From Candidatus Magasanikiibacteriota bacterium (GTDB lineage Bacteria; Patescibacteriota; Patescibacteriia; Magasanikbacterales; UBA922), in NCBI GenBank assembly GCA_021648085.1, contig JAKITS010000001.1:132948-196947 (forward strand): a DNA stretch of 64,000 nt, in the 5' to 3' direction. Of this stretch, positions 5,648-56,466 are shown piece after piece (position 1 is the first letter of the stretch; each line of letters starts with the position of its first letter). The position numbers were made by a program, and so were the translations under genes. A model generated the notes under the pieces. The model made no database searches. It was not told the origin of the DNA and saw only the letters and a list, made by a program, of their open reading frames with translations.

Positions 5648-5651
5648 AAAT

Positions 5652-6593: not shown

Positions 6594-6597
6594 TATT

Positions 6598-7353: not shown

Positions 7354-7359
7354 ATTTTT

Positions 7360-9227: not shown

Positions 9228-9287
9228 CTTTTTTATTCATATGTTTTAATTTAAATTTCAATAATTAATTTTAAAAATAAATATAAT

Positions 9288-17126: not shown

Positions 17127-17215
17127 GTCATTCCTCTTAATTACAAAGCAGTCTTAGTATTTAATTCTTAGTTCTATTTTACAAACCCTGGATACCTAAT
17201 CGAGTTGAGGATGAC
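17127..17215. repeat. Family B MITE-like palindromic element (~89 nt)
   Basis: Starts 'GTCATTCCTC' and ends 'CTAATCGAGTTGAGGATGAC'. Same termini as the elements at 38730, 43473 and 56380. Confidence 0.7.
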
Positions 17216-17237
17216 AGTAAGAAAAGTTATTTTGAAT

Positions 17238-17279
17238 CGAGATCCATTCGACTCCGCTTTGCTTCGCTCAGGATGACGT
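17238..17279. repeat. Family A repeat unit (inverse orientation)
   Basis: 'CGAGATCCATTCGACTCCGCTTTGCTTCGCTCAGGATGACGT'. Confidence 0.75.
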
Positions 17280-17389
17280 GTGGAAACAAATTTACAAATT
17301 TTGGATCCCAATCAAATTAAAAATGTCAATGTTAGGTTTTTTGTTTTGTATTATGTTCTGTGTCTTTCCTTATTTAGTCTACTGTTTTC

Positions 17390-22754: not shown

Positions 22755-22920
22755 ACGTCATCCTGAGCGAAGCCGAAGGATCTCGATTTAAGATCATTAA
22801 AACACAAAATATTCATAGTTCTAATGAAATTAAATCGAGATATTTCGACTCCACTGCGTTCCGCTCAATATGACGTGAGCTTTGATTTTCAACTCCGTTT
22901 CACCCCGCTCAATATGACGT
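22755..22920. repeat. Cluster of three family A repeat units between GT2 and the DUF2304-like gene
   Basis: 22755-22785 'ACGTCATCCTGAGCGAAGCCGAAGGATCTCG'. 22836-22876 'CGAGATATTTCGACTCCACTGCGTTCCGCTCAATATGACGT'. 22893-22920 'CTCCGTTTCACCCCGCTCAATATGACGT'. Confidence 0.75.
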
Positions 22921-22947
22921 ATAATCCATACTTAATACTTTCGTAAT

Positions 22948-23286
22948 ATGATAATTTTATTTCAAATTTTATTTGTACTTTTTTCTATGTTTGCTGTTTT
23001 TGCTGTGTGGAAAAAGAAGGAAAAAGGACTTTTAGGACCAAAAGGAGTGTTTTTTTGGACATCTTTTTGGTTGCTCGCTGTGGTGGCAGTAGTTTGGCCT
23101 GAAAGCACCAGTATTTTAGCCTCAAAATTTGGAATAGGAAGGGGTGTTGATTTAGTTTTTTATTTTGCTTTTGTAATACTTTTTTATATTATTTTTCGTT
23201 TGCATATAAAAATTGAGTCTGTTGGCAGGGATATTACAAAGATTGTTCGCAAAAATGCAATTAATAGTAAACATAGTTCAAAATAA
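22948..23286 (+). CDS. Small membrane protein, DUF2304-like (commonly partnered with DPM1-like GT2)
   Basis: 112 aa with two to three TM helices and a basic tail. The gene order GT2, small TM protein, GT4 is typical of DUF2304 loci. The family assignment is from memory. Confidence 0.45.
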   Translation: MIILFQILFVLFSMFAVFAVWKKKEKGLLGPKGVFFWTSFWLLAVVAVVWPESTSILASKFGIGRGVDLVFYFAFVILFYIIFRLHIKIESVGRDITKIVRKNAINSKHSSK

Positions 23287-23290
23287 TTTT

Positions 23291-24415
23291 ATGAAGATTG
23301 CTCAAATTATTTGTACTTATCCCCCTTATCGTGGTGGAATGGGTAATTCTGTTTTTGAGGCTTCAAAATATCTAAGAAAGTTGGGGAATGAAGTGGAGGT
23401 TTTTACACCATTTTACACTGAAAATGAAATTAAACTTCCAAATGTAAATTATGAAAAACCGATATTTTCTTTTGGAAAAGCTGCAAGAATAAAAAAGTTT
23501 TTAGATGGGTTAACTAATTTTGATATTGTACATTTACATTATCCATTTTTTGGTACAGCTAGTTTGGTCGCAAAATGGAAAAAAGAAAATCCAAAAATTC
23601 CACTCGTGATTACTTATCATATGGACGCCACAGCAAGTGGGTGGAAAGGTTTAATTTTCAAACTTTACTCAAAAATTTTAATGCCAAAAATTTTAAATTC
23701 CGCAGATGCTTTAATTGCATCTACTTTTGATTTTGTTGAAAATAGTCAAGCAAAAAATATACACAAAAAAACAAAAGAAAAATGGCATGAAGTCCCTTTT
23801 GGTGTGGATATCGAAAGGTTTAAAATAAGAGAAAAAGACGAAAAACTTTTTGAAAAATATAATTTGGATAAAAACAAAAAAACTATTTTGTTTGTTGGTG
23901 GAATGGACAAAGGTCATCATTTCAAAGGGGTTCCAGTTTTGCTAGAAGCACTCAAAAAACTTCAAACGAATAATTGGCAGTGTATTTTAGTAGGAGAAGG
24001 TGATTTAAGAGAGGGGTTTATAAAATTAACAAATAAATTAGGTTTAAACGAAAAAGTAAAATTTGTAGGAAATGTATCTGAAGAATTGTTACCAAAATAT
24101 TACAATTTGGCTGATTTGTTTGTGTTACCTTCAGTAAGTAGTGCTGAGGCTTTTGGTATTGTTTTGCTAGAAGCTATGGCAAGTAGTGTTCCTGTGGTTG
24201 CCACAAATTTACCAGGAGTTAGAAAAATAGCCCGAAAAGGTGGGGAAGTGGCAGAAATAAATAATTCAGAAGATTTAATTATTAAAATAGAAAGTGTTTT
24301 AGAAAGATATGAGCATAAAAATTTAAAAATAAAACTTCAAGAAATAATTAAAAAAGAATATTCTTGGGAAATCTCAGTTTGTAAGTTGTTAAAAATATAC
24401 AAAAAACTAATCTAA
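23291..24415 (+). CDS. Family 4 (GT-B) glycosyltransferase
   Basis: 'MKIAQIICTYPPYRGGMGNSV' N-terminus and 'EAFGIVLLEAMASSVPVVATNLPGV' C-terminal GT4 motif. The track ORF starts at 23213, but the internal ATG at 23291 gives the canonical GT4 N-terminus. Confidence 0.8.
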   Translation: MKIAQIICTYPPYRGGMGNSVFEASKYLRKLGNEVEVFTPFYTENEIKLPNVNYEKPIFSFGKAARIKKFLDGLTNFDIVHLHYPFFGTASLVAKWKKENPKIPLVITYHMDATASGWKGLIFKLYSKILMPKILNSADALIASTFDFVENSQAKNIHKKTKEKWHEVPFGVDIERFKIREKDEKLFEKYNLDKNKKTILFVGGMDKGHHFKGVPVLLEALKKLQTNNWQCILVGEGDLREGFIKLTNKLGLNEKVKFVGNVSEELLPKYYNLADLFVLPSVSSAEAFGIVLLEAMASSVPVVATNLPGVRKIARKGGEVAEINNSEDLIIKIESVLERYEHKNLKIKLQEIIKKEYSWEISVCKLLKIYKKLI

Positions 24416-27633: not shown

Positions 27634-27662
27634 TTGACATTTTATTGGTTTTCTTATATAAT
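27634..27662 (+). promoter_or_regulatory. Consensus sigma-70 promoter for the tRNA pair
   Basis: TTGACA (27634-39), 17-nt spacer, TATAAT (27657-62). Confidence 0.6.
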
Positions 27663-27694: not shown

Positions 27695-27766
27695 GGCCTA
27701 TTCGTCTAGTGGTTAGGACGCCGGGTTCTCATCCCGGTAAGAGGGGTTCGATTCCCCTATAGGCTA
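27695..27766 (+). tRNA. tRNA-Glu (anticodon CUC)
   Basis: Cloverleaf with acceptor GGCCTAT/ATAGGCT, anticodon arm 'CCGGG TTCTCAT CCCGG' and T-arm 'AGGGG TTCGATT CCCCT'. No encoded CCA. Confidence 0.75.
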
Positions 27767-27796
27767 CATATAGATCTATTTAAAAATAAATCTAAT

Positions 27797-27870
27797 GGCT
27801 GGGTAGCTCAGTTGGTAAGAGCGCAGGATTCATAACCCTGAGGTCGGGAGTTCGACTCTCCCCCCAGTCA
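27797..27870 (+). tRNA. tRNA with CAU anticodon (elongator Met or Ile2-lysidine type)
   Basis: 'GGCTGGGTAGCTCAGTTGGTAAGAGC' D-arm, anticodon loop 'TTCATAA', T-arm 'GGGAG TTCGACT CTCCC', G1 pairs with C72 so it is not an initiator. Confidence 0.75.
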
Positions 27871-27878
27871 CAGAGGAA

Positions 27879-27914
27879 AGCAAATTAGGCAGAATAAGCA
27901 GATTAAGTAAGTAC
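27879..27914. repeat. Motif C (~32-35 nt), copy 1 of 3
   Basis: 'AGCAAATTAGGCAGAATAAGCAGATTAAGTAAGTAC'. Matches the reverse complements of 47661-47692 (28/31) and 38862-38893. Confidence 0.55.
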
Positions 27915-27950
27915 AAAAACAAAAAAACTCCATTTGGAGTTTTTTTTGTT
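27915..27950 (+). terminator. Intrinsic terminator after the tRNAs
   Basis: 'AAAAAACTCCATTTGGAGTTTTTTTT'. Confidence 0.65.
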
Positions 27951-28103
27951 TTAAGTTTTTACTTAACTACGTAGTAGTCTTAGTTCTTAACCTCGGAGAG
28001 GTCTTGTATAGTGGGTTGCATTATAGCAATAAATCAGAATACATTATATAATATATAGTATTGATAAAATGCAATCTTATGAAAAATAATGTTGTACAAA
28101 AAT

Positions 28104-28136
28104 TTGGGAGTTGAGATTGTAGATTTAATAAAATAA
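28104..28136. repeat. 33-bp direct repeat (left) flanking the rhuM cassette
   Basis: 'TTGGGAGTTGAGATTGTAGATTTAATAAAATAA', 30/33 identical to 29241-29273. Encodes the '...LGVEIVDLIK*' end of a 15-codon remnant ORF. Confidence 0.7.
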
Positions 28137-28138
28137 AT

Positions 28139-29161
28139 ATGATAAAAGACAAACCAAACAATAAAATAATTATATATACGGCTGACGGCGGTAATCCAAC
28201 AATTAATGTTCGTATCGAAGGAAAAACTGTATGGCTTTCACAAATTCAATTGGCTGAACTTTTTGGAACATCAAAAGCAAATATTAGCTTACATATTAAA
28301 AATATCTTTGAAGAAGGTGAATTAAGTAAAGAACCAACTGTTAAGGAATACTTAACAGTTCAAAAAGAAGGAGATAGAGATGTTTCTCGTCATATAGAAT
28401 ATTATAATCTAGACCTCATAATATCTCTTGGTTATCGGGTAAAGTCGCAAATCGCAACTCACTTTCGAAAATGGACAACAGAACGTCTTAGTGAGTATCT
28501 CGTAAAAGGTTTTACCATGGACGACGAACGACTCAAAGGTATGGGTGGAGGAAGCTTTTGGAAAGAATTACTAGATCGTATTCGTGATATCCGAAGCAGT
28601 GAAAAGGTGCTGTACCGCCAAGTGTTGGATTTGTATGCGACTAGTGTTGATTATGACCCAAATAGCTCTGAATCAATCAAGTTTTTCAAAATAGTACAAA
28701 ACAAACTTCATTATGCCACAAACAAAAATACTGCAGCTGAAACTATTTTTACACGCGCGGATGCCGAAAAAGATTTTATGGGTTTGAAAACATTTGCAGG
28801 TATATTACCAATATTGTCAGAAGTTGGGGTTGCCAAAAACTATCTTACCGAAGACGAGTTGTTTATATTAAACCGTATGGTTTCGGCTTTCTTTGATTTG
28901 GCAGAAATAAAAGCAAAAGAACAGAAAAAAATGTATATGGCAGACTGGGTGGCAGAGTTGGATAAATTTGCTGAAAATTATGGAAAGGGTGTTTTGAAAG
29001 ATGCAGGAAAAATAAGCCATAAACAAGCAGTAAAAAAAGCTCAAAAAGAATACAGACAATTTCAAGCTAAAACATTATCACCAGTTGAGGAGGCGTATTT
29101 GAAAAATATCAAAAACATACAAAAAGAGGTTGAACAAAAAACCAAGTCTTCTAAAAAATAA
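28139..29161 (+). CDS. rhuM: RhuM-family virulence/Fic-DOC-related protein
   Basis: N-terminal 'IIIYTADGGNPTINVRIEGKTVWLSQIQLAELFGTSKANISLHIKNIFEEGEL' is the hallmark RhuM block. Length 340 aa. Confidence 0.7.
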   Translation: MIKDKPNNKIIIYTADGGNPTINVRIEGKTVWLSQIQLAELFGTSKANISLHIKNIFEEGELSKEPTVKEYLTVQKEGDRDVSRHIEYYNLDLIISLGYRVKSQIATHFRKWTTERLSEYLVKGFTMDDERLKGMGGGSFWKELLDRIRDIRSSEKVLYRQVLDLYATSVDYDPNSSESIKFFKIVQNKLHYATNKNTAAETIFTRADAEKDFMGLKTFAGILPILSEVGVAKNYLTEDELFILNRMVSAFFDLAEIKAKEQKKMYMADWVAELDKFAENYGKGVLKDAGKISHKQAVKKAQKEYRQFQAKTLSPVEEAYLKNIKNIQKEVEQKTKSSKK

Positions 29162-29162
29162 T

Positions 29163-29273
29163 ATGGAAAAATTAAAAGTAAATTTAGAATCAGGGAAACA
29201 AAATCCAACATTTGAAATAATTGCGAAAATTGTTGAAGAGTTGGGGGTTGAGATTGGAGATTTAATGAAATAA
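29163..29273 (+). pseudogene. C-terminal half of an XRE-type HTH protein (36 codons), probably a gene remnant
   Basis: 'NLESGKQNPTFEIIAKIVEELGVEIGDLMK' matches helix 3 to the C-terminus of HTH_XRE ('ERGKRNPSLETLLKIAKALGVSLDEL'). The N-terminal helices are missing. It starts 1 nt after the rhuM stop and ends with the right 33-bp direct repeat. Confidence 0.45.
29241..29273. repeat. 33-bp direct repeat (right) flanking the rhuM cassette
   Basis: 'TTGGGGGTTGAGATTGGAGATTTAATGAAATAA'. Confidence 0.7.
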
Positions 29274-29319
29274 TTATTATGATAAATTCAAAATAGGCAA
29301 AATCAAGAATAAAAATAAA

Positions 29320-29358
29320 TAAACTCCTTGAAGAGTCAGGTTGGAGTTTTTTTGTTTT
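29320..29358 (+). terminator. Intrinsic terminator
   Basis: 'AACTCCTTGAAGAGTCAGGTTGGAGTTTTTTTGTTTT'. Confidence 0.5.
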
Positions 29359-29439
29359 CTAAGATATTTTGTATTTTTGTAGTTTTTTGCTACCATAATA
29401 ATATATTGTTGAAATAATAAGAAATGTTTAGAATATGGT

Positions 29440-30087
29440 ATGAGAATTAAAAATAAATTAAAAATTGAGCGTCCTAGGGAGAAAATGAAAAAATACGGCC
29501 CTGAAAAACTAAAAGATGAAGAGCTTTTGGCAATTTTATTACGCACTGGTACGAAAAAAATGGATGTAATTAAATTAGCTCAAAAGATATTACGTGATTT
29601 TAAAGATGAGAAAATTCTTGATGTAACTATTGTTGATTTGCAGAAAATTCATGGTTTAGGTTTAGCAAAAGCATGTGAAATCGTGGCATGTTTTGAGCTT
29701 GGACGTAGAAAATTACAAGGAAAGAAAACAAATATTTTACTTACACCAAAAGATGTCTGGGAAGCAATGGTAGATATTCGTAATAGTAAAAAAGAACATT
29801 TTGTTGTTTTTTATCTTAATAGCAGAAGTCAAGAAATCAAACGAGAGATTGTTTCGATAGGTACAATAAATGCGAGTCTTGTCCATCCACGGGAAGTTTT
29901 TGAGAGTGCAATTAAAAACAATGCTTCATCAATAATTCTTGCTCATAATCACCCATCTGGAGATCTTGAACCGTCACAAGATGATATAGAAATTACAAAA
30001 AAACTTGTTTATGCAGGAAAAATTTTGGATATTCAAGTGGTTGATCATGTAATAGTATCTAATAAAGAATTTAAGAGTTTTATATAA
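29440..30087 (+). CDS. radC: RadC-like JAB/JAMM-domain protein
   Basis: 'ILAHNHPSGDLEPSQDD' JAMM motif. N-terminal 'EELLAILLRTG' helix-hairpin-helix region. Confidence 0.85.
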   Translation: MRIKNKLKIERPREKMKKYGPEKLKDEELLAILLRTGTKKMDVIKLAQKILRDFKDEKILDVTIVDLQKIHGLGLAKACEIVACFELGRRKLQGKKTNILLTPKDVWEAMVDIRNSKKEHFVVFYLNSRSQEIKREIVSIGTINASLVHPREVFESAIKNNASSIILAHNHPSGDLEPSQDDIEITKKLVYAGKILDIQVVDHVIVSNKEFKSFI

Positions 30088-30088
30088 A

Positions 30089-31291
30089 ATGCCAAAAAAT
30101 AATATTATAATTAATGATGGGGGATATTATGCTATAAAAGGTTTTGCTTATCAAATAGATAAAGCAATTTTAGAAATCTTAAATACTGATGACGAGAGTA
30201 AAAGTATAAATATTGAGCAAATTCAAGACATAGATTTAGCTGATTCAGTTATACAAGTTAAATATAAAGAAACTACTAAGCTAGTTCCCTCTCAAGTAAA
30301 CAAGCCAATATCACAACTCATTGAAGAATTTAAAGTAGATAACACAAAAAAATATATTTTGTATACTTATTTTGATGACTTAAATGGATATGAGGAAAAA
30401 GTAGATCAAGATAAAAAAATTTCAAAGGATACTTTGGATGAATTTTTAGGGAACCTAAAAAATGATTTTACAGAACAGGAAAGAATAGACTTTGTTAATA
30501 ATTTTTATTTAGATTTTTCTCCAGAGTTTCAATCTCAATTTAATTCTGTAATTTTAAAATTAAAAGAACAGAGTTTTATTGGAAATACTGACGAAGAGGC
30601 AATGTTTTATTATGCAAATATTTCAGACTTTTTGTATAAATTAGTCACAAATAATCCAACCATAAAAATTAAAAACAGGACGTGTACTCAAAAAGAAATA
30701 TTTGATTATTTAAAAAACGGTAAGTGTCTAATCTTTAATTCTAGTTTTAGAGAATATCAAGGTGATCAAAAATATTTTACTTTTATTAAAAAACAACATT
30801 TTTCTAATAGAAATATAGATTATTTTGAAAGATTCATTATTGTAGAATTAAGTAGAAATGAAAGCATTGCAGATATAAAAGAAGTTGTTTTTAAAATTAA
30901 AGATGCATTTTATAACAAATCAGGAACATGGAGAGGTAAAGTAATAAAATCTCCTGCCCCGTATATTTATATGATTAATATTTCAGATGATAGTTTAATT
31001 CAGTTAAAAACTGAATTATTAAAAGAAAGTACAATTTTCAAAGATGGTTTTGATTTTGCTGGTGCTAATTTTTCTTTAGATTCAATAAAACAAAATTCTA
31101 CAATCCACAACAATCTTTGTTTAAAATTAGTTAATAATGAAGATATTTTAAAGCGATTAATAAGTGAAGATTTTCAACATCCAAAAGAAATTTATCAATT
31201 TTACACAAATGAAAGTATTATAATTAAACCTAATATGAAAAATATTGAAATACAAATAAAAAACATATCAGATATTATTTTTATTCTTTAA
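30089..31291 (+). CDS. DUF4297 (Cap4-type nuclease domain)-like protein, putative partner of the HerA-like ATPase
   Basis: The N-terminus 'GGYYAIKGFAYQIDKAIL' resembles the DUF4297/Cap4-nuclease N-terminal signature as recalled. It lies 11 nt upstream of a HerA-type ATPase, matching the gene order of the DUF4297-HerA defence pair. No SIR2 motif. Confidence 0.5.
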   Translation: MPKNNIIINDGGYYAIKGFAYQIDKAILEILNTDDESKSINIEQIQDIDLADSVIQVKYKETTKLVPSQVNKPISQLIEEFKVDNTKKYILYTYFDDLNGYEEKVDQDKKISKDTLDEFLGNLKNDFTEQERIDFVNNFYLDFSPEFQSQFNSVILKLKEQSFIGNTDEEAMFYYANISDFLYKLVTNNPTIKIKNRTCTQKEIFDYLKNGKCLIFNSSFREYQGDQKYFTFIKKQHFSNRNIDYFERFIIVELSRNESIADIKEVVFKIKDAFYNKSGTWRGKVIKSPAPYIYMINISDDSLIQLKTELLKESTIFKDGFDFAGANFSLDSIKQNSTIHNNLCLKLVNNEDILKRLISEDFQHPKEIYQFYTNESIIIKPNMKNIEIQIKNISDIIFIL

Positions 31292-31302
31292 CTTAAAATA
31301 TC

Positions 31303-33012
31303 ATGACAAATTCAACTGATCAAAAACTTGCTTTCGTAACTTCCGTTTATCCAAATAAAGTAAAAATTGAAGTAGAAAATCTAACTGCTTTTAAAGATAA
31401 TATAGATGACGCACTTGGTGATTTAAAAATTGGCTCTTATCTTGAAATTTCTGATAATGAAGGTTGTAAACTTATTGCTATTATTGAAAGCTATCAAATA
31501 GAATTAAAAGAAAGAATTATAGAAAATGAACAAGGTGAAAAAAATAAAGAAACTTACAACGCTTACGTATTAGAAGCTAGTCCTCTCGGTACAATAAAAG
31601 GTAAAGAATTTACTAGAGGTGGCGATGCTTTGACTATTCCACCAACAGAGGTAGGACCTGCAAGTGAAGAAAATATAAAATTAATTTATGAAAATGGATT
31701 TGAGCCACAAGAAAAGTTTTTATTTGCAAAATTAGCACAAGATGAAAATATTGAAGTTCCTGTAAATGGGAATAAATTTTTCAATAAACATTTCGCAATT
31801 GTTGGGTCTAGTGGTTCAGGGAAATCGCATACGATAGCAAAAATTATACAAAAAGCTGTTGCAGAGAAAAATGGTGAATTCGAATTAAACAATTCTCACA
31901 TTATAATATTTGATATTCACAACGAATATAAAACAGCTTTCCCAGATGCCAACTTTTTGGATATTAGCAACTTAGTTTTGCCTTATTGGTTACTCAATAG
32001 TGAAGAATTAGAAGAACTATTTATTGATACGGAAGCTAATGACCACAATCAAAAAAATGTTTTCAAAGAATCAATTGTAACGAATAAAAAGGACAGTTTA
32101 ATTAAAGAAGATGGTGAAAGTCATGAAGATTTTAACAATAGAAAAGAAAAGATTCATTATGATTCTCCTGTTTTGTTTGATATTCAAAAAGTTTTGGAAT
32201 TTGCTCAAAACAAAAATCAAGAAATGGTTCCAGGTGCAAATAATAAAGAAAAACAGGGTTCATTATTTGGAAAATTAACCAATTTTGTCAGTAGATTAGA
32301 GAATAAATTGAATGATAAAAGATTTGAATTTTTATTAGGAGATAATTCAAAAGAAATTTCTTTTGAAGATACTTTGAGACAATTTATTGGATATAAAGAT
32401 GACAATAAATCAAATGTAACAATTATTGATTTAAGTGGTGTTCCTTTTGACGTTCTTAGTGTCACAGTAGCTTTAATTTCAAGAATATTATTTGATTATG
32501 GATATTTTTATAAAAAATATTTAAACGAAGGTGTTGATTTGGAAACTCCATTATTGCTTATATATGAAGAAGCACATAAATATGTACCAAAAAATGATTT
32601 TGCAAAATTTAGAGCATCGAGGAATGCTATTGAAAGAATTGCAAAAGAAGGAAGAAAATATGGTGTAACTTTAGGTATTATAAGCCAAAGGCCATCTGAA
32701 ATATCTGAAACCATCTTCTCTCAATGCAATAACTTTATTGCTATGAGATTAACAAATCCAACTGATCAGAATTATGTAAAAAGATTGTTACCAGATACAT
32801 TGGGGAATCTAATTGATAATTTACCATCATTACAATCTGGAGAAGGACTTTTGCTTGGAGAATCAATAATTATGCCATCTTTAGTTAAAATAGAAAAATG
32901 TGATAACGATAAACAGCCATCTTCAAATGATGTGAAATATTTGGAAACATGGAAAGAGGAATGGAAAGATGTTGATTTTAATAACATAATTAAAAAATGG
33001 AAATATGAATAA
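31303..33012 (+). CDS. HerA/FtsK-superfamily ATPase (DUF87-like)
   Basis: Walker A 'VGSSGSGKSHT', Walker B 'LLLIYEEAHKYVP', the 'AKEGRKYGVTLGIISQRPSEIS' arginine-finger block typical of HerA/VirB4-type ATPases, and an N-terminal beta-barrel-like region. Confidence 0.75.
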   Translation: MTNSTDQKLAFVTSVYPNKVKIEVENLTAFKDNIDDALGDLKIGSYLEISDNEGCKLIAIIESYQIELKERIIENEQGEKNKETYNAYVLEASPLGTIKGKEFTRGGDALTIPPTEVGPASEENIKLIYENGFEPQEKFLFAKLAQDENIEVPVNGNKFFNKHFAIVGSSGSGKSHTIAKIIQKAVAEKNGEFELNNSHIIIFDIHNEYKTAFPDANFLDISNLVLPYWLLNSEELEELFIDTEANDHNQKNVFKESIVTNKKDSLIKEDGESHEDFNNRKEKIHYDSPVLFDIQKVLEFAQNKNQEMVPGANNKEKQGSLFGKLTNFVSRLENKLNDKRFEFLLGDNSKEISFEDTLRQFIGYKDDNKSNVTIIDLSGVPFDVLSVTVALISRILFDYGYFYKKYLNEGVDLETPLLLIYEEAHKYVPKNDFAKFRASRNAIERIAKEGRKYGVTLGIISQRPSEISETIFSQCNNFIAMRLTNPTDQNYVKRLLPDTLGNLIDNLPSLQSGEGLLLGESIIMPSLVKIEKCDNDKQPSSNDVKYLETWKEEWKDVDFNNIIKKWKYE

Positions 33013-34402
33013 AATATACACAACAAAAAATGATGTATTAAAAGAAGCTAAGAAAATTCTTAATCAATCTTTGCGTGATATAATGATTGATAATAATATT
33101 GATATTGAAAAATTGGAACAAAAACTTTTTCAATATAATAAAAGACGAAAAGGACTTTTGGGTGAGTTGGTTGAGGAATTCGTTTTTGGGCTTAATGTAA
33201 ATAATAATGCTGAGGCAGATTTTGTTATTGCTGGTATAGAATTAAAAACCAATCCACTTAAAAAATCTAATAAAAAAGATTTTGTTTCTAAGGAACGTTT
33301 GGTTTTTTCAATGATTAATTATAATAAAATAGTAAATGAAACATGGGAAAATAGTTCATTTCTTAAAAAAAATAAAGTTCTTTTGCTGATGTTTTATCTG
33401 TGGCTTAAAGATCAGAGTATTTTGGATTATGAGTTTAAATTTGTACATTTACTTGACTTACTAAATGGTCTATCTGGTGAAGATATATATCAAATACAAA
33501 AGGATTGGGAATATATTGTCGCAAAAATTAAACGGGGAGAAGCTCATTTGTTGTCTGAAGGGGATACGTATTATTTAGGTGCTTGTACAAAAGCTGCAAA
33601 TAGTAGGGTTGTACGTGACCAACCAAAATCACGTATATTAGCAAAACCAAGAGCTTTTTCTTTTAAACAACAATATTTAAACTTTTTAATTCAAAAAGAA
33701 TTACTCGGTAAGTCTGTAGATACAGAATCAATTTTTAAGAAAAAACGACGATTAGCTACGGTAGAAGATATTGTAAAAGAAAAGTTTTCTAAATTTATAG
33801 GAAAAACAGATCTTGAGATTAAGAATATTGTGGGTTGGGAAATTGAGAAAAAACCAAAAAGTTGGAAACGTCTTTTGGCAAATAGAATGCTCGGTGTTAA
33901 ATCAAATAAAATTGAGGAATTAGAAAAAGGAAATATAAAAATGAAAGTAATTACATTGGAATATACAGGTACTCTTAGGGAATCACTTTCTTTTCCAGCA
34001 TTTAATTATAAAGATTTAATAACACAGGTTTGGTATGATGACGAAAATCAGAAAATGAGTGATTTATATGAGTTATTAGAAACGAAAAAATTTTTATTTG
34101 TTGTATTTCAAAAACAAAAAGATAGTAAAGAGATTATTTTTAGAAAAATAAAATTTTGGAATTTTCCAATGAAAGATTTGTTGGAAGTTAGAAATGTATG
34201 GGATAAAACAATTGATTGTATTAATAATGGAGAATATAAAAATTTACCAAAAATGAGTGAGAATGGTGTTGCTCATGTGCGACCGCATGGAAAAAATTCA
34301 AAAGATACAATAGAAACTCCACAAAAAACACAAGAAACAAAAAGGTCATTTTGGTTAAATGCAAAGTATATTCAAAAAGTACTCGAAAATGATATTGATT
34401 AA
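33005..34402 (+). CDS. MutH/Sau3AI-family type II restriction endonuclease (GATC-family candidate)
   Basis: 'EADFVIAGIELKTNP' aligns with the E. coli MutH catalytic block 'EQDFAALGVELKTIP' (D, E-x-K). Further blocks 'SKERLVFSMINY' and 'QKDWEYI...GEAHLLSEGDTYYLGACTKAANS...AKPRAFSFKQ' resemble Sau3AI as recalled. The start overlaps the HerA stop (ATGAATAA). Confidence 0.65.
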   Translation: MNKIYTTKNDVLKEAKKILNQSLRDIMIDNNIDIEKLEQKLFQYNKRRKGLLGELVEEFVFGLNVNNNAEADFVIAGIELKTNPLKKSNKKDFVSKERLVFSMINYNKIVNETWENSSFLKKNKVLLLMFYLWLKDQSILDYEFKFVHLLDLLNGLSGEDIYQIQKDWEYIVAKIKRGEAHLLSEGDTYYLGACTKAANSRVVRDQPKSRILAKPRAFSFKQQYLNFLIQKELLGKSVDTESIFKKKRRLATVEDIVKEKFSKFIGKTDLEIKNIVGWEIEKKPKSWKRLLANRMLGVKSNKIEELEKGNIKMKVITLEYTGTLRESLSFPAFNYKDLITQVWYDDENQKMSDLYELLETKKFLFVVFQKQKDSKEIIFRKIKFWNFPMKDLLEVRNVWDKTIDCINNGEYKNLPKMSENGVAHVRPHGKNSKDTIETPQKTQETKRSFWLNAKYIQKVLENDID

Positions 34403-34456
34403 AATTTGATCAATATCATTATTTTTGTTAAAATATAATTAATAAATTTTTTTAAT

Positions 34457-35704
34457 ATGAAAATAATAAGAGTGGTTGAATTATTTGCTGGAGTCGGAGG
34501 GTTTCGAATCGGGCTTAAACAAGCAGATAATGAAAAAGTGAAATATAAAACTATTTGGAATAGTCAGTGGGAACCAAGTACAAAAACACAACATGCTTCA
34601 GAAATATACAAAAAACATTTTGGTGAAAAAGGACATTCTTGTGAGGATATTAGAAATGTTGTTGATAATAAATTTCACACAATTCCTGAACATGATTTAT
34701 TAGTTGGTGGTTTTCCTTGTCAAGATTATTCTGTAGCACGTACAGCAAATCAAGCAAATGGTTTAATTGGTAAAAAAGGTGTTTTGTGGTGGTCTATTTT
34801 TGATATTTTAAAAAAAAGTGGAGAAAAAGCTCCCAGTTTTTTATTGTTAGAAAATGTTGATAGACTTCTTAAATCACCAACTAAACAAAGGGGGCGTGAT
34901 TTTGCTGTAATGCTCTCCTCTTTGGCTTCACTTAATTATATAGTGGAATGGAGGATTATTAATGCAGCAGAATATGGTTTTCCACAACGACGAAGACGTG
35001 TTTTTATTTTAGCTTATAAAAAAGGAACAAAACTTAATAAAAAAGCACGGAATATAAATTTAGAAGATTGGATAAATAAAAAGAGTGTAATGGCAAAAGG
35101 TTTTCCTATTTATAAAAATAATAATTTGTTAACCTCGTTTCAGATTAACACTAATCCGGCTAAAGTTTCTGAAGAATTTTCAAAAAATTCTCCAAAAATA
35201 AGTCCTTTTTATAATAGTGGTATAATGATTGATAATAAAATATATACAAAAAAAGTTCATCCAAAATATAATGGTAAAAAAGTAATTCTAAAAGACGTTT
35301 TAATTGATGAGAAACATGTACCGGAAGAATTTTTTATTGATGAGAAAACATTTGAAAGGTGGAAATATTTAAAAAATAGTAAAACAGAAAAGAGATGTAC
35401 TAAAGATGGTTTTGAATATAGTTATTCAGAAGGTGGTATGATTTTTCCAGATAATTTAGAGAATGCATCTAGGACAATTGTGACAGGTGAAGGAGGCTCA
35501 TCACCTTCAAGGTTTAAACACGTTATTAAAACAAAAACAGGACGTTTACGCAGATTAACACCAATAGAATTAGAACGACTTAATATGTTTCCAGATAATC
35601 ATACAGAAGGTGTATCAAATACAAAACGAGCTTTTATAATGGGTAATGCTCTTGTTATCGGTGTTATCAAAAAATTAGGTCAAACACTTTCAGACTTTAT
35701 ATAA
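34457..35704 (+). CDS. DNA (cytosine-5)-methyltransferase
   Basis: Motif I 'ELFAGVGGFRIG', motif IV 'GGFPCQDYS', motif VI 'ENV', and a target-recognition domain between. Confidence 0.9.
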   Translation: MKIIRVVELFAGVGGFRIGLKQADNEKVKYKTIWNSQWEPSTKTQHASEIYKKHFGEKGHSCEDIRNVVDNKFHTIPEHDLLVGGFPCQDYSVARTANQANGLIGKKGVLWWSIFDILKKSGEKAPSFLLLENVDRLLKSPTKQRGRDFAVMLSSLASLNYIVEWRIINAAEYGFPQRRRRVFILAYKKGTKLNKKARNINLEDWINKKSVMAKGFPIYKNNNLLTSFQINTNPAKVSEEFSKNSPKISPFYNSGIMIDNKIYTKKVHPKYNGKKVILKDVLIDEKHVPEEFFIDEKTFERWKYLKNSKTEKRCTKDGFEYSYSEGGMIFPDNLENASRTIVTGEGGSSPSRFKHVIKTKTGRLRRLTPIELERLNMFPDNHTEGVSNTKRAFIMGNALVIGVIKKLGQTLSDFI

Positions 35705-35711
35705 ATTCATA

Positions 35712-35750
35712 AAAAACAAAAAAAACTCCTCTCGGAGTTTTTTTTGTTTT
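35712..35750. terminator. Bidirectional intrinsic terminator (island end / hup end)
   Basis: 'AAAAAACTCCTCTCGGAGTTTTTTTT' flanked by an A-run and a T-run. Confidence 0.7.
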
Positions 35751-35758
35751 GAGTTTTT

Positions 35759-36043
35759 TTATCTTCTTCCTTTCAAAGTATCTTTCAGTGTTTTTCCTGC
35801 TTTGAATTTTGGTACAATTACTGGTGGAATTTCTATTTTGATGCTTGGATTTCTTGGGTTTACGCCAATTCTTCCAGCACGTGTTTTTGCACTAAACGCT
35901 CCAAAACCTGCAATGTTTACAAATCCGCCAGTGTTTAATGTATTTGTGACTATTTCCACAAACGCAGAAACCATTTGCACAGCTTCTTTTTTAGATACAC
36001 CAACTTTTTCAGCTATTTGGTTTGATAGTTCTACTTTGTTCAT
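35759..36043 (-). CDS. hup: DNA-binding protein HU
   Basis: 94 aa, 'MNKVELSNQIAEKVGVSKKEA...GFGAFSAKTRAGRIGVNPRN'. Confidence 0.85.
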   Translation of the reverse strand: MNKVELSNQIAEKVGVSKKEAVQMVSAFVEIVTNTLNTGGFVNIAGFGAFSAKTRAGRIGVNPRNPSIKIEIPPVIVPKFKAGKTLKDTLKGRR

Positions 36044-36101: not shown

Positions 36102-37631
36102 TTATTTTGCGTATTCTATCACACGCGTCTCTCTTATTACACTTACTTTGATTTCTCCTGGGTATTGAAGTTCACTTTCTACTTTTCTAGCAATATCTTT
36201 TGCAAGGTTGTAAGCTTGGTAATCATCAATTTCGCTAGGCTTTACAAAGATTCTCACTTCGCGTCCAGCTTGAATAGCATAAACTTTTTCAATTCCTGGG
36301 AAGTCCTTTGCAGTTTGCTCCAACTCTTCCAAACGAGCTACATATTTTTCATAAGTATCACGCCGTGCACCAACTCGTGAAGAAGATATTGCATCTGCGG
36401 CTTTTACTATTTGTGTAATTAGTTTTTCTGGTTTGTCTTCGTGATGGTTTGCCGCAGCATCTTGTGAATCTTCATCTAATCCAAATTTCTTTAGAATTGT
36501 AAAACCAATTTCTGGGTGTGTTCCTTGTGTTTCTTGGTCTACTGCTTTTCCAATATCATGAAAGAAACCTGCTTTTTTTGCTTTTATAGGATCAACTCCA
36601 CCAATTTCTTCTGCCATCAAAGCAGAAAGATAAGCAACTTCAATTGAATGGTTCAATACGTTTTGACCATAACTTGTTCTATATTTTAAACGCCCCACAA
36701 TTGAAACTAACTTTGGTACAATACCAGTAAAACCAAGCTTATAAAGTGCTTCCTCACCAGTTTTTTTGATATCAATAGCCAACTCTTTTTTTGAGTCTTC
36801 TATTGCTTGCTCAATTTTTCCAGGATGAATTACACCTTCTTGGATAAGTCTTTCTAGTGCAAGAAAGCATACTCTACGACGAATTGGCGAGAAGCCAGAG
36901 ATTAAGATTACTCCTGGAGTTTCGTCTATTACAAGTTCACAGCCTGTTAATTTTTCAATTGTTTTTATGTTTCTACCATCTTTTCCAATGATTCGACCTT
37001 TCATATCATCGCTTGGCAAATTTACAACAGTAGATGTTGTCTCACTTGCGTGGTTTGAAGAACATCTTTGTATGGCTCCAAGTATAATTTCTCTTGCTTT
37101 TTCTGCATAAATTTCTGCATTTTCTTTTTCAATTTTCATCAATCTGCCAGACAGGTCGTGTGCTGAGTCTTTTTTTATAGCCACCATTAATTCTTCTTTT
37201 GCTTGTTCTTTTGAGTAGTTGGATATTTTTTGCAATTTTTCTACTGCATCTTTGTGGGTGTTATCTATTTTTTGTTTTACAGATTCTATCTCATCTCTTT
37301 TTTGTTGTAATTTACTTTTTTGATTTTCAAAATCCAACAACTTATTGTCGAACATTGATTCTCTTTGGGACATTCTATTTTGAAGATTGCGAATATCTTT
37401 TCGCATATTATTCTCTTCTCTTTTTACTTCATCTAGAATTTTAATTGATTTTTCTTTTGCATCAATTAAAATAGTTTTTTCCTTATTCTTCACTTCTGAA
37501 AGAATTTTTTCTGCTTTTGCCTCTGCTGTATTTATCTTGGATTGTGCTATAAGTTTGCGTACTGCATAACCAATAGCAACACCAATAAAAATACTAATAA
37601 TAGAGGATAAAAATAGTGTTATCTGCGACAT
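36102..37631 (-). CDS. rny: Ribonuclease Y
   Basis: N-terminal TM, coiled coil, KH domain 'GKDGRNIKTIE', HD domain 'FFHDIGKAVD'. Confidence 0.85.
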   Translation of the reverse strand: MSQITLFLSSIISIFIGVAIGYAVRKLIAQSKINTAEAKAEKILSEVKNKEKTILIDAKEKSIKILDEVKREENNMRKDIRNLQNRMSQRESMFDNKLLDFENQKSKLQQKRDEIESVKQKIDNTHKDAVEKLQKISNYSKEQAKEELMVAIKKDSAHDLSGRLMKIEKENAEIYAEKAREIILGAIQRCSSNHASETTSTVVNLPSDDMKGRIIGKDGRNIKTIEKLTGCELVIDETPGVILISGFSPIRRRVCFLALERLIQEGVIHPGKIEQAIEDSKKELAIDIKKTGEEALYKLGFTGIVPKLVSIVGRLKYRTSYGQNVLNHSIEVAYLSALMAEEIGGVDPIKAKKAGFFHDIGKAVDQETQGTHPEIGFTILKKFGLDEDSQDAAANHHEDKPEKLITQIVKAADAISSSRVGARRDTYEKYVARLEELEQTAKDFPGIEKVYAIQAGREVRIFVKPSEIDDYQAYNLAKDIARKVESELQYPGEIKVSVIRETRVIEYAK

Positions 37632-38729: not shown

Positions 38730-38825
38730 GTCATATTTTTATTTTTAACTCGATTGGTGATCGAGAGTTTGTATCATTGTTCTGGTTTGTAGATTCCTGG
38801 ATTCCTAGTCAAGTTGAGAATGACA
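38730..38825. repeat. Family B MITE-like palindromic element
   Basis: Ends 'GGATTCCTAGTCAAGTTGAGAATGAC', with an internal 'CTCGATTGGTGATCGAGAG' partner. Confidence 0.6.
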
Positions 38826-38861
38826 AAATAGAAGTTTTTACTTTCTTGTCTTATACATTTT

Positions 38862-43162: not shown

Positions 43163-43240
43163 CTTGCAATAAGTCGAAAATTGAACTAACATAAATACAC
43201 ACTAGTATATACTAGTGTGTATTTAATTATGTTTTATTAT

Positions 43241-43418
43241 GTCATATTGAGCGAAGTCGAAATATCCCCGTGCAGTATCACTAAAATACAAATAATTAAA
43301 TTTTTGTGATTCTATTTCGAGATCCGTTCGACTTCATTCCGCAATGCTCCATTTCGCTCAGGATGACGTATTTTTTCACATCATATTGAGCGGAACGAAG
43401 TGAAGTCGAAATATCCCC
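43241..43418. repeat. Cluster of three family A repeat units
   Basis: 43241-43275 'GTCATATTGAGCGAAGTCGAAATATCCCCGTGC'. 43318-43369 'CGAGATCCGTTCGACTTCATTCCGCAATGCTCCATTTCGCTCAGGATGACGT'. 43377-43418 'CACATCATATTGAGCGGAACGAAGTGAAGTCGAAATATCCCC'. Confidence 0.75.
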
Positions 43419-43472
43419 TTGCAATTTCACAAAAACATAAATAATTAAAAATAAACATTAGTTCCTTTTTCT

Positions 43473-43559
43473 GTCATCCTCAACTCGATTGGGGATCCAG
43501 AGTCTGAATCACTGTTTAATTATTAAAGTTTCTGGATTCCCGATCAAGTCGGGAATGAC
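43473..43559. repeat. Family B MITE-like element (87 nt), clearest copy
   Basis: 'GTCATCCTCAACTCGATTGGGGATCCAGAGTCTGAATCACTG...TTTCTGGATTCCCGATCAAGTCGGGAATGAC'. The ends form ~26-nt terminal inverted repeats. Confidence 0.75.
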
Positions 43560-43615
43560 AATACTTAAAATGACAAAATTTTTAATTTATATTACTTATT
43601 TAACAGATAAAAACT

Positions 43616-47408: not shown

Positions 47409-47476
47409 AATAACTAATAATTAGTAGCTAACAAAGAACAAGAAGATTACGTTTATTTTAATTATTTATATTTTGT

Positions 47477-47636
47477 GAAATTGTAAGGGGATATTTCGAC
47501 TCCGTTTCACTTCGCTCAACATGACGTGAATATTTGTGTCATCCTTAGCGAAGTCGAAGGATCCCCCAAATTAATTCACAAAATTTTAAATATTAACAAT
47601 TCTGATGATTCTATTTCGAGAACTCTCTCTATCGCT
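47477..47636. repeat. Cluster of three family A repeat units
   Basis: 47477-47517 'GGGGATATTTCGACTCCGTTTCACTTCGCTCAACATGACGT'. 47528-47555 'GTCATCCTTAGCGAAGTCGAAGGATCCC'. 47606-47636 is a degenerate copy. Confidence 0.7.
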
Positions 47637-47660
47637 TGGGATGACATATTTAACTTCGGT

Positions 47661-47692
47661 ACTTGATCTGCATAATCTGCCTAATTTGCTGC
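47661..47692. repeat. Motif C copy (reverse orientation)
   Basis: The reverse complement 'CAGCAAATTAGGCAGATTATGCAGATCAAGTA' is 28/31 identical to 27879-27914. Confidence 0.55.
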
Positions 47693-47699: not shown

Positions 47700-49190
47700 A
47701 TGCTTCAAAAAATAATAAATTCCAAAAGCAAAACGTTTCTCGCGTTTTGTTTTTGTTTTTTATTTGGGACTGCTTTTGTTTCAATTTTAGATTTTTCATT
47801 TGATTTTGTTTTCATTTATTTTGGAATTTTTGTAGTTGTTGGGTTTTTAATTATTTTTTGGAAATACAAATTTTTTAGACTTACATCACTTTGTGTTTTG
47901 GCAATTTTACTTGCATTTGGCAGGTATATTTTATTTTTTCCCAGCGAAACCAATATTTCAAATTATGCAGAAGAGAATGTTCGATTTTCTGCTATTGTAA
48001 TCCAAGAGCCAGACATTCGTGTGGATAGTGTTCGCTATGTTGTAAATGTCGAAAAAGTAGATAAAAAAGTTGGAGAAGGTAGAGTTTATTTTAAATCAGA
48101 ACTTTATCCTCGCTATGAATATGGAGATAAATTAGAAATATATTGTAAAATAAAAAAACCAACAAAAATAGAAGATTTTAATTTTGATAAATATCTTGCA
48201 CTTAAAAAAGTTTTTGCATATTGCGGTGTTCCGCAAATTCGCAAAATAGGTGAGGATGAAGGAAATATTTTAATGAGTTCTGTGCTATCGGTAAAAAATA
48301 CTTTTGCGCAAAAAATAAATCGTCTGTGGCACGAGCCAAACGCAAGTTTTGTGGCAGGATTACTTTATGGTTATCGTGGGGGTTTGGGGGAGTTGCAAGA
48401 AGATTTCAACACAACTGGCGTTACGCATATTGTCGCGATCTCTGGCTATAATATTGCAATTATTGGTGCAATTTTTATTGTAATTTTGAGCTTTCTGCGA
48501 ATCCCTCGCAAAAAAGCATTTTGGATTATTATTTCTGGGATTGGTGTTTTCGTACTTTTTGCTGGAGCTAGTGCTTCCGTAGTGCGTGCAGGAATTATGG
48601 GACTTCTGGTTTTACTCGCAAAACAGCTTGGTAGAATGTCGCATCCTATAAATTTATTGCTTTTCACTGCCGTAGCAATGGTATTACACAATCCTTATGT
48701 TCTAATTTGGGATGCAGGTTTCCAACTATCTTTTGTGGCAACCGCTGGGCTTATCTACCTCACTCCAAAATTAGAAATTTTCACAGAAAAAATTCCAGAA
48801 CTTTTTGGACTAAAAAAGATTTTTCTGGAAACTTCAGCTGCAATTATCGCAACACTTCCACTAGTTCTATTTCATTTTGGTAGATTTTCTATTGTCGCAC
48901 TTCCTACAAATATTCTCATCCTGTGGATAATTCCATTTATAATGTTGGGTGGATTTTTGGCTGTAATTTCATCTTTTATCTTTTTTCCACTTGCCCAAAT
49001 TATTTCGTGGATTACATGGATTGCACTGGAATATGTTATTCTAATTGTTAGATGGTTTGCAGATTTTTCTTTTGCATCTATAAATTTAAGTATGCCTGCA
49101 ATTGTCGTAGTTTTGTTTTATATTTGTTTAATTTTCTATAAACAAATTTATGATTATTTGGAAATTAGATGGCTTAAATTTAGAATATGA
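47700..49190 (+). CDS. comEC: ComEC/Rec2-like competence channel protein, N-terminal part (DUF4131 plus competence domain)
   Basis: Polytopic membrane protein. 'TGVTHIVAISGYNIAIIG' is the competence-domain signature. Confidence 0.7.
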   Translation: MLQKIINSKSKTFLAFCFCFLFGTAFVSILDFSFDFVFIYFGIFVVVGFLIIFWKYKFFRLTSLCVLAILLAFGRYILFFPSETNISNYAEENVRFSAIVIQEPDIRVDSVRYVVNVEKVDKKVGEGRVYFKSELYPRYEYGDKLEIYCKIKKPTKIEDFNFDKYLALKKVFAYCGVPQIRKIGEDEGNILMSSVLSVKNTFAQKINRLWHEPNASFVAGLLYGYRGGLGELQEDFNTTGVTHIVAISGYNIAIIGAIFIVILSFLRIPRKKAFWIIISGIGVFVLFAGASASVVRAGIMGLLVLLAKQLGRMSHPINLLLFTAVAMVLHNPYVLIWDAGFQLSFVATAGLIYLTPKLEIFTEKIPELFGLKKIFLETSAAIIATLPLVLFHFGRFSIVALPTNILILWIIPFIMLGGFLAVISSFIFFPLAQIISWITWIALEYVILIVRWFADFSFASINLSMPAIVVVLFYICLIFYKQIYDYLEIRWLKFRI

Positions 49191-50065: not shown

Positions 50066-50114
50066 ACCTGTACAAATGTATCCTTTTTTGGTATATTAAA
50101 TCCTAATATCATTC

Positions 50115-50224
50115 ACGTCATATTGAGCGGAACGAAGTGGAGTCGAAATATCTCGTGTTTAGTTCATTAATTTTAGTTTTTATGATATTTTCTCGAGATC
50201 CTTCGACTTCGCTCAGGATGACGT
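50115..50224. repeat. Inverted pair of family A units separated by 38 nt
   Basis: 50115-50155 'ACGTCATATTGAGCGGAACGAAGTGGAGTCGAAATATCTCG'. 50194-50224 'CGAGATCCTTCGACTTCGCTCAGGATGACGT'. Confidence 0.8.
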
Positions 50225-50238
50225 AAATTATAATTTTT

Positions 50239-56329: not shown

Positions 56330-56379
56330 ATTTGAGAAGTTCTAATTGTTATATCGTTTCGCTTGTTTTTTGCCTTGTT

Positions 56380-56466
56380 GTCATTCTCAGCTTGACTGGG
56401 AATCCAGAGTCTGCAAACCAGAATGTTGAATCAAATCCTGGACCCCCAATCAAGTTGAGGATGACG
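56380..56466. repeat. Family B MITE-like element (87 nt)
   Basis: 'GTCATTCTCAGCTTGACTGGGAATCCAGAGTCTGCAAACCAG...GGACCCCCAATCAAGTTGAGGATGACG'. Confidence 0.75.

Follow-up and report, generated by a model that had tools for sequence, protein, structure and literature searches.

The DNA analysed here is a stretch of 64,000 nucleotides (nt) from a Candidatus Magasanikiibacteriota bacterium (GenBank assembly GCA_021648085.1, contig JAKITS010000001.1, positions 132,948 to 196,947 of the forward strand), hereafter referred to as the window. Between a tRNA-Glu/tRNA-Met pair and the genes hup and rny it carries a block of defence genes. We consider it very probable that positions 28008 to 35758 of the window represent a horizontally acquired defence island without an integrase, which would provide layered protection against phages and which would have been built stepwise by host recombination. 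In such an island, a Sau3AI-family endonuclease is expected to cut unmodified incoming DNA, presumably at GATC, and a C5 methyltransferase would protect the host DNA; a DUF4297-HerA pair would serve as an abortive-infection nuclease by analogy with its counterpart in E. coli, RhuM is a candidate toxin-type effector, and RadC appears to be co-transcribed at the head of the operon.

Insert borders, empty sites and gene content

The borders of the insert were defined by a global alignment against the empty site of locus L103, which belongs to a metagenome-assembled genome (MAG) of Candidatus Magasanikbacteria (GCA_002790555.1). Where the window has 7,751 bp (28008-35758), L103 carries only 'CTC'. 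On the left side, the homology spans the tRNAs, a shortened version of a motif found in the tRNA trailer (motif C) and T1, which terminates the tRNA operon, and it extends through a spacer of 47 nt (S) as far as window position 28007; on the right side it is back exactly at 35759, the hup stop codon. BLASTN colinearity with L103 was lost near 27990 and regained exactly at 35759. The inserted DNA starts 136 nt past tRNA-Met and beyond T1, and its right end is at the hup stop codon. The tRNAs, motif C, T1 and spacer S are ancestral and lie outside the insert. An earlier reading of this DNA from the sequence alone (the first-pass annotation) had given the region as 27695-35750, and the borders of the segment are corrected accordingly; the features that it had listed, namely the tRNA pair, its terminator, rhuM, a helix-turn-helix (HTH) remnant, RadC, the defence operon, the second terminator, hup and rny, were all found where it had placed them (Table 1).

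The informative relatives were found by a PBP2 protein search followed by contig look-ups. The best PBP2 homologue, which is that of L103, is 80% identical to the protein of the window. Gene order in L103 (YtxH, PilT, PBP2, tRNA-Glu, tRNA-Met, hup, rny, truB, methyltransferase, ppa, infB, trx and gdh) matches that of the window to the left and to the right for at least 10 genes, the nucleotide identity being about 79%, and at the empty site of L103 tRNA-Met is followed by the terminator hairpin, spacer S and hup without any cargo. Empty sites with tRNA-Met followed by hup and rny were also found in L107 and L001, in which PBP2 is 68% and 58% identical respectively. PBP2, tRNA-Glu, tRNA-Met, hup and rny are thus contiguous in all three of the nearest relatives found. 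The segment is accessory, as the first-pass annotation had supposed, since the sites are empty and their flanks conserved in these relatives, none of which has the same genes at the same place. In scans of genomes and metagenomes with PBP2, L001 was the sole syntenic relative and other genes were found downstream of PBP2 elsewhere; no record was found of a protein identical to the HU, RNase Y or RhuM of the window.

Table 1. Features annotated in and around the insert, with their window coordinates
Feature	Position	Strand	Evidence and remarks
tRNA-Glu (anticodon CTC)	27695-27767	+	ARAGORN; Rfam tRNA 60.4 bits; same place in L103, L107 and L001; ancestral left flank
tRNA-Met (anticodon CAT)	27797-27871	+	ARAGORN; Rfam 66.8 bits; ancestral left flank
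Motif C, in the tRNA trailer, outside the insert	27879-27909	+	28/31 identical to an inverted copy at 47660-47690
T1, bidirectional terminator hairpin of the tRNA operon	27914-27960 (hairpin 27914-27952)		Scan of both strands; -20.3 kcal/mol, z -6.2
Spacer S, ancestral	27961-28007		Aligns with L103 up to '...TCTTGT'
HTH-tail copy 1, orphan of ~12 codons	28104-28136	+	Translates as ...NLGVEIVDLIK-stop; upstream stops in all frames
rhuM	28139-29161	+	Pfam PF13310 E 6e-103 (model 2-248/252); PADLOC PDC-S05 E 8e-144
Truncated XRE-HTH gene, 36 codons, C-terminal half only	29163-29273	+	Pfam HTH_3 E 6e-5, model 28-55/55
T2, degenerate third terminator copy	about 29324-29360	+	3 mismatches to the T pattern; separates the rhuM module from the radC operon
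radC	29440-30087	+	Pfam RadC E 1e-41, UPF0758_N E 3.5e-23; NCBIfam RadC equivalog cut-off passed
DUF4297 nuclease subunit	30089-31291	+	PADLOC DUF4297 E 3e-60; PDB 8xav chain G E 1e-26
herA ATPase subunit	31303-33012	+	PADLOC HerA E 1e-244; PDB 8xau E 2e-179
Sau3AI-family type II endonuclease	33005-34402	+	NCBIfam restrict_Sau3AI 417.6 bits (cut-off 300 bits); Pfam MutH E 1.5e-25
C5 cytosine DNA methyltransferase	34457-35704	+	Pfam DNA_methylase E 1.6e-61; PADLOC MTase_II E 1e-165
T3, perfect 17-bp bidirectional terminator	35711-35758 (hairpin 35713-35750)		About -20 kcal/mol on both strands, z about -6
hup	35759-36043	-	Pfam; 66% identical to the L001 orthologue; ancestral right flank
rny	36102-37631	-	Pfam; 62% identical to the L001 orthologue; ancestral right flank

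The insert contains one tight operon in which radC is followed by the genes for DUF4297, HerA, the endonuclease and the methyltransferase with gaps of 1, 11, -8 and 54 nt, the start of the endonuclease gene overlapping the herA stop by 8 nt. The first-pass annotation had described a four-gene defence operon. Its four genes are present, but the operon has five genes with radC as the first, because only 1 nt separates radC from the DUF4297 gene and no internal plus-strand terminator was found in the terminator scan. Nor do the four genes form one system; they comprise a DUF4297-HerA pair and a type II restriction-modification (R-M) pair, headed by RadC.

All the catalytic motifs checked in the island enzymes are intact. 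RadC is full-length, with an N-terminal HhH domain, a JAB domain and the HNHPSG motif. DUF4297, with the N-terminal Cap4-like PD-(D/E)xK nuclease domain of the DUF4297-HerA system, aligns over its full length to chain G of PDB 8xav, in which alignment ...DIDLAD-SVIQVKY stands opposite ...DVDVYN...AIQCKY; the D...QxK segment is taken from this alignment to be the putative nuclease motif. HerA, a hexameric ATPase by type, has a Walker A motif (GSSGSGKS) at residue 168 and is 100% identical to NCBI MCF6276355.1, just as the PBP2 of the window is 100% identical to MCF6276350.1, both of them encoded on a 984,181-bp contig of a Candidatus Magasanikbacteria MAG. The endonuclease has the MutH/Sau3AI fold and matches PDB 4pxg (Sau3AI) over residues 46-410 (E 1e-51), and the methyltransferase contains the canonical motifs FAGVG (I), GFPCQ (IV), ENV (VI), QRRR (VIII) and GNA (X). 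Outside the operon, the match of RhuM is full-length over the RhuM domain. RhuM has been put forward as a toxin domain associated with R-M loci (PMC3710099). It is listed by PADLOC as the candidate defence gene PDC-S05 and is a candidate toxin-type effector with a proposed role in defence.

Repeats at module borders and related loci

The rhuM gene is flanked by two copies of a 33-bp direct repeat (28104-28136 and 29241-29273; 91% identity, E 3e-6 in the window), both of which are 3' tails of an XRE-HTH gene including the stop codon (...LGVEI.DL.K-stop). The first copy is an orphan tail with the rhuM ATG positioned 2 nt after its stop codon, and the second forms the end of the 36-codon HTH fragment. 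In a related locus, L100, this tail stands directly before the start codon of radC (93% over 30 nt), and in another, L098, a degenerate version of it does so. From the position of this tail next to radC in both loci we infer an ancestral HTH-radC-DUF4297-herA unit, into which rhuM was probably spliced at the HTH/radC junction, duplicating the tail.

The second set of duplicated sequences consists of terminator hairpins. T1 and T3 form a 47-nt direct repeat in which 43 of 47 positions are identical, and its alignment score of 67 compares with 30 for the best of 2000 shuffles. In the third copy, T2, the partial match to the repeat covers 29331-29358; its 3' arm equals that of T1 minus one T in the T-run, and it folds weakly (z -1.1). 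All three transcription units are closed by a copy of this hairpin (T1, T2 and T3), and no further copies of this motif were found in the window. T1 is ancestral, as L103 has a homologous hairpin at its empty site, whereas T3, the last 48 nt of the insert, where it serves the converging methyltransferase and hup genes, is a lineage-specific copy of T1 that was not imported with the operon, because the terminators of L107 and L001 differ and the homologous block in L098 runs into unrelated sequence.

The first-pass annotation had named the 33-bp repeats around rhuM and the motif C copy at 27879 as the only repeat structures. Both of these are real, but the 47-nt T1/T3 repeat and T2 show that they are not the only ones. 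No shuffled sequence gave a match as good as that between the two copies of motif C; these were the only copies in the window and none was found in any fetched locus, apart from the shortened version at the L103 empty site. The second copy (47660-47690, minus strand) is located just upstream of comEC, beside a palindromic repeat. Motif C was rejected as a conserved small open reading frame (ORF) because the start codon is not common to both copies. A weak similarity between the part upstream of T2 and motif C was reached by 23 of the 2000 shuffles.

The operon recurs in other loci. HerA homologues were found in other metagenome contigs with identities of 92, 92, 89, 89, 89, 88 and 85%, as against 80% for the best homologue of PBP2, one of these contigs being labelled 'Patescibacteria group bacterium'. 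Locus L097 contains radC, the DUF4297 gene, herA, the gene of a MutH-type restriction endonuclease and the start of a methyltransferase gene (82% nucleotide identity from radC to herA and 69% in the R-M part), and L098 contains a divergent rhuM (43% amino acid identity) followed by the whole five-gene block (77% nucleotide identity). In L100/L101, a fusion of RadC with a Dam-type (D12) methylase, an AlwI-type restriction endonuclease and an N4/N6 methylase occur together with DUF4297 and HerA (85% nucleotide identity from the DUF4297 gene to herA). The homology with L097, L099 and L100/L101 breaks at window position 33003, which is the end of herA, and the flanking genes are unrelated in every locus that shares the block. 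Since the homology breaks at this point and the flanks differ from locus to locus, the island is a mosaic of modules that are exchangeable.

In each of the four loci whose upstream side is visible, RadC stands at the head of the unit. It is closely coupled to the DUF4297 gene in three loci, two of which have gaps of 1 and 2 nt and the third an overlap of 4 nt, and the herA and endonuclease genes overlap in two. By published prediction RadC is a nucleic-acid-processing enzyme, and to our knowledge it is still without an assigned function. The fusion in L100 (29-1840 of that locus) is a protein of 603 amino acids in which a full-length RadC (HhH and JAB domains) is joined to a D12-class (Dam-type) adenine methyltransferase; it heads the AlwI-type R-M pair, with DUF4297-HerA further downstream. 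This fusion could reflect a functional link between RadC and DNA modification. Our literature search gave no paper that mentions RadC together with DUF4297.

Modules in other contigs with a close HerA homologue are also bordered by direct repeats. In L098, a 98-nt repeat (90% identity; 6429-6526/7819-7916) flanks rhuM and a 59-nt repeat (5511-5569/7769-7827) brackets a Bro-N gene and rhuM. In L097, a 55-nt repeat (91%; 4861-4915/8071-8125), which is the tail of a MazG-like gene, flanks radC-nSTAND3, its right copy being located just upstream of the operon's radC. L102 has a 45-nt repeat (93%; 4330-4373/9878-9922) around 5.5 kb of sequence ending in rhuM, and an aldo-keto reductase gene in L099 stands between the copies of a 62-nt repeat (9793-9852/10793-10854) that is the tail of a cvfB-like gene. 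Overall, the module repeats in these contigs measure 45-103 nt with 87-93% identity, no integrase was found near them, and in two cases (L097 and L099) they are the 3' tail of the upstream gene. Few such repeat pairs were found in control loci of similar size from the Candidate Phyla Radiation (CPR). All of the module repeats differ in sequence, which argues against a single site-specific recombinase; they are more compatible with short-homology recombination of imported DNA. The GC-rich repeat that flanks rhuM in L098 was rejected as a structured RNA (no Rfam match, fold z +0.14).

Origin of the island

No domain of an integrase, recombinase or transposase was detected, either in the ORFs of the island or in those ORFs from 23.2 to 61.6 kb of the window that were scanned with Pfam, in agreement with the first-pass annotation. 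The scanned ORFs are of the housekeeping type (a PilT-like ATPase, PBP2, truB, a methyltransferase, ppa, infB, trx, gdh, leuS, comEC and others). The island had also been described as tRNA-adjacent. It does lie next to the tRNA pair, but the tRNA is probably a neighbour and not the insertion target, because the insert starts 136 nt past tRNA-Met, beyond the terminator, and because no tRNA-derived repeat was found: there is no tRNA-derived match of 12 nt or longer in or beside the island and no partial copy of tRNA-Met elsewhere in the window. A search for an attL/attR pair containing the tRNA 3' end, which the first-pass annotation had suggested, was likewise negative.

Neither a phage nor a plasmid origin is supported, as no record in the phage and plasmid collections covers more than 10% of the island and no relatives of its HerA and RadC were found in viral contigs. 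Homologues of RhuM (42-63% identical) are common on viral contigs, where they occur without the upstream HTH or any other gene of the island.

Compositionally, the island has a GC content of 28.0-28.5% and a GC content at third codon positions (GC3) of 16.6%, compared with 34.1% and 23.7% in core genes. The insert as a whole (28.0%) compares with about 32% in the rest of the window, within which GC content ranges overall from about 25 to 38%. Of the two measurements that the first-pass annotation had proposed, codon usage does set the island apart through its lower GC3, but the deviation is modest as proof of foreignness, and GC skew simply tracks gene orientation in the window. A dispersed family of palindromic intergenic repeats, present in at least 8 spacers of the window, is absent inside the island.

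The modules would have been added one by one through host recombination of imported DNA, without a recombinase of their own, and this process would have left short direct repeats at the module borders, where the HTH tails flank rhuM and where T1, T2 and T3 close the transcription units. Natural transformation is a plausible route of entry because a comEC homologue is present in the window (47700-50065). Competence genes are reported to be prevalent in Patescibacteria, for which genomic islands with R-M systems have also been described (PMC12455944). The first-pass annotation had left the choice between an old decayed island and a cassette-type acquisition; stepwise recombination is favoured here by the mosaic of modules and by the short direct repeats that border modules in the island and in four related loci, and no integron-like or dedicated cassette machinery was found.

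Several observations weigh against this interpretation. An integrase encoded elsewhere in the 984-kb genome may act in trans, as our search covered the 64-kb window. The geometry of the terminator copies is also awkward: spacer S is found on the left of the insert only, whereas T3 on the right abuts hup directly. Because of this placement of S, a simple single crossover at the terminator was rejected as a sufficient model, since it does not account for T3. With regard to the proteins, DUF4297 scores 224 bits against the 300-bit cut-off of the NCBIfam model DUF4297_antiphage, and HerA, at 812.6 bits, is slightly below its NCBIfam cut-off of 850. The tetranucleotide distance of the island is moderate and smaller than that of positions 1-10 kb of the window. 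The GATC motif is only mildly depleted in the window (observed/expected 0.81), which gives no independent support for an active GATC-specific enzyme. Finally, the searches turned up no island-free strain of this species, and the insertion event can therefore be neither dated nor reconstructed.

Among the alternatives, a decayed integrative element that used the terminator hairpin as its attachment (att) site is unlikely but has the most to recommend it. T1 and T3 would then be attL and attR, T2 would mark a second integration in tandem, and the integrase would have been lost later or be encoded elsewhere. In favour of such an element are the 47-nt repeat (43/47) at both ends, with a third copy between the modules and none elsewhere in the 64 kb, the decay seen in the truncated HTH genes, and the occurrence in this family of a locus (L108) with an integration scar, a tRNA-containing repeat of 117 nt with 97% identity. 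However, the ancestral spacer S stands between T1 and the insert with none after T3, an arrangement that yields no simple attL/attR pair unless L103 is a deletion derivative. The island itself contains no integrase and no room for a remnant of one, its non-coding gaps being only 131 and 278 nt; none of its repeats contains tRNA sequence, and the repeats of the related loci differ in sequence, so that a single site-specific enzyme would be insufficient.

The scar in L108, a locus whose PBP2 is 62% identical to that of the window, is of the classical integration type. The two copies of the direct repeat (9932-10048 and 10099-10215 of that locus) start with the last 18 nt of the tRNA-CAT gene and have almost nothing between them. 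The same locus carries 6.4 kb of two-component-system and Big-domain genes (3383-9756) between tRNA-Glu and tRNA-CAT.

It is very unlikely that the segment is ancestral to the lineage and was lost separately by each of the relatives examined. Such a deletion could be mediated by the direct repeats T1 and T3, and spacer S, which is common only to the window and L103, could be the leftover of a former island in L103. Recombination between T1 and T3 would, however, delete S, which L103 has kept. In addition, loss is unparsimonious with L103, L107 and L001 all lacking the segment at increasing distance, the same block occurs in unrelated contexts elsewhere, and GC3 is below that of the core genes. 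An assembly chimera joined at the repeated terminator is highly improbable: the source is indeed a MAG and a repeat is found near both ends, but the left junction (28007/28008) lies outside any repeat, the T copies differ at 4 of 47 positions, the flanks and the insert are on one 984-kb contig, and the island is similar to other low-GC parts of the window in its GC content and its codon usage. Finally, an integron-like cassette array without its integrase (a cluster of attC sites lacking integron-integrases, CALIN), in which the hairpins that separate the modules would be attC sites and the lack of a local integrase would be expected, is barely conceivable, as the hairpins are A/T-rich intrinsic terminators (A-run, short GC stem, T-run) and were rejected as attC sites for want of RYYYAAC...GTTRRRY boundaries, T1 is the ancestral terminator of the tRNA operon, the second 'cassette' would be a five-gene operon, and no IntI-like gene occurs among the Pfam-scanned ORFs of the window.

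The stepwise, integrase-less island that we prefer can be extended into a broader proposal on RadC and on module gain, which we consider doubtful as a whole. RadC, ancestrally accompanied by an upstream XRE-HTH gene, would be a working DNA-processing or regulatory part of a composite operon of Patescibacteria that couples R-M to DUF4297-HerA, and these small genomes would gain defence genes independently of a recombinase, with a terminator or the 3' end of a gene, 30-100 nt of sequence at the site, being duplicated around each incoming module. Instances of this pattern of local duplication are T1/T3 and the two HTH tails in the island, and the repeats in L098, L097, L102 and L099.

Comparison with known systems and significance

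The DUF4297-HerA system of E. coli is an ATPase-nuclease complex with a promiscuous dsDNA nuclease, the activity of which depends on its assembly with HerA, and it acts by abortive infection (PMC11291478, Cell Res 2024), a form of protection known only for this E. coli system. The island has the same two adjacent genes in the same order as the E. coli system (PDB 8XAU/8XAV), separated by 11 nt, and the Walker A motif is present. Unlike in E. coli, the pair is embedded in a five-gene operon with RadC before it and a Sau3AI-type endonuclease after it; two DUF4297-HerA loci on proteobacterial plasmids have neither RadC nor a Sau3AI-type neighbour.

Sau3AI belongs to a type II system that recognizes GATC and is partnered by a C5 methyltransferase. 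The endonuclease of the island is of the same family, passing the equivalog cut-off, and also has an adjacent C5 methyltransferase; the same pair of genes is found in a Mesomycoplasma record. In contrast to the Sau3AI system, the pair of the island does not stand alone but appears to be co-transcribed with DUF4297-HerA, and its specificity for GATC is presumed. Two other motifs are under-represented in the window: GGCC strongly (16 observed against 42 expected, ratio 0.38) and ACGT with a ratio of 0.58. This hints at past or present pressure by other restriction systems encoded elsewhere in the genome.

Defence hotspots in the core genome of Pseudomonas aeruginosa without identifiable mobility genes have been reported, as cited in PMC10121019. 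Like these hotspots, and like the R-M islands of Patescibacteria, the site described here holds variable defence cargo between conserved core genes, has no integrase or transposase and is empty in relatives. It differs in that only one occupied state of this exact site was seen, and the status of a hotspot is therefore not shown; the cargo of L108 is nearby but unrelated, has no defence genes and lies between different tRNAs. Copies of a terminator at the module ends, as found here, are not a described feature of those hotspots. Compared with classical tRNA islands, which carry a tyrosine integrase, the island shares its proximity to tRNA genes, its atypical composition, its absence in relatives and its direct repeats, but it contains no integrase, its repeats hold no tRNA sequence, and its insertion point is at the hup stop codon, beyond the tRNA terminator and 136 nt away from the tRNA.

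Some features of the surrounding DNA were also recorded. A match to a sigma-70 promoter with the perfect consensus TTGACA-17-TATAAT is positioned upstream of tRNA-Glu (27634-27662). The comEC homologue is split into two ORFs with a 4-nt overlap, 47700-49190 with the DUF4131 and Competence domains and 49187-50065 with the metallo-beta-lactamase domain. In the usual ComEC, these three domains form a single fused protein.

The palindromic intergenic repeats are about 40-140 nt long and occur in both orientations, with cores such as GTCATCCTGAGCGAAG..GAAGGATC and GTCATATTGAGCG..GTCGAAATATC. They were found at 17182-17280, 22755-22921, 38747-38826, 43235-43561, 47435-47621, 50111-50228, 56378-56465 and 63186-63334 of the window and at 8081-8389 and 12533-12862 of L103, in the orthologous truB/methyltransferase and trx/gdh spacers. 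The family has no Rfam match, and no member was found in positions 1-17 kb of the window. A long cluster of genes on the same strand extends over positions 1-24415, with a low GC content (24-30% over the first 13 kb) and a di- and tetranucleotide composition that deviates more than that of the defence island. By eye, the translations of its ORFs resemble glycosyl- and methyl-transferases, a radical-SAM enzyme and sugar epimerases, and the sole ORF of the cluster that was scanned (23213-24415) is a GT4-family glycosyltransferase. This cluster is probably a second accessory region, concerned with surface polysaccharide.

CPR/Patescibacteria have genomes of about 1 Mb, which are mostly without CRISPR. 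Their phage defences, and the ways in which these are acquired, are of some interest for that reason. The locus presents a complete DUF4297-HerA pair and a Sau3AI-type R-M system as one operon at a precisely defined site. The insert makes up 0.8% of the 984-kb genome, and its gene block is also in circulation in other Patescibacteria. As R-M islands in Patescibacteria and, in other bacteria, hotspots without an integrase were already known, these results extend the known picture and do not change it. Two features, if confirmed, could matter more: the recurrence of RadC as first gene of the operon and the module-flanking repeats in independent loci. Between them they could indicate what RadC does, or a gain of genes that is free of integrases.

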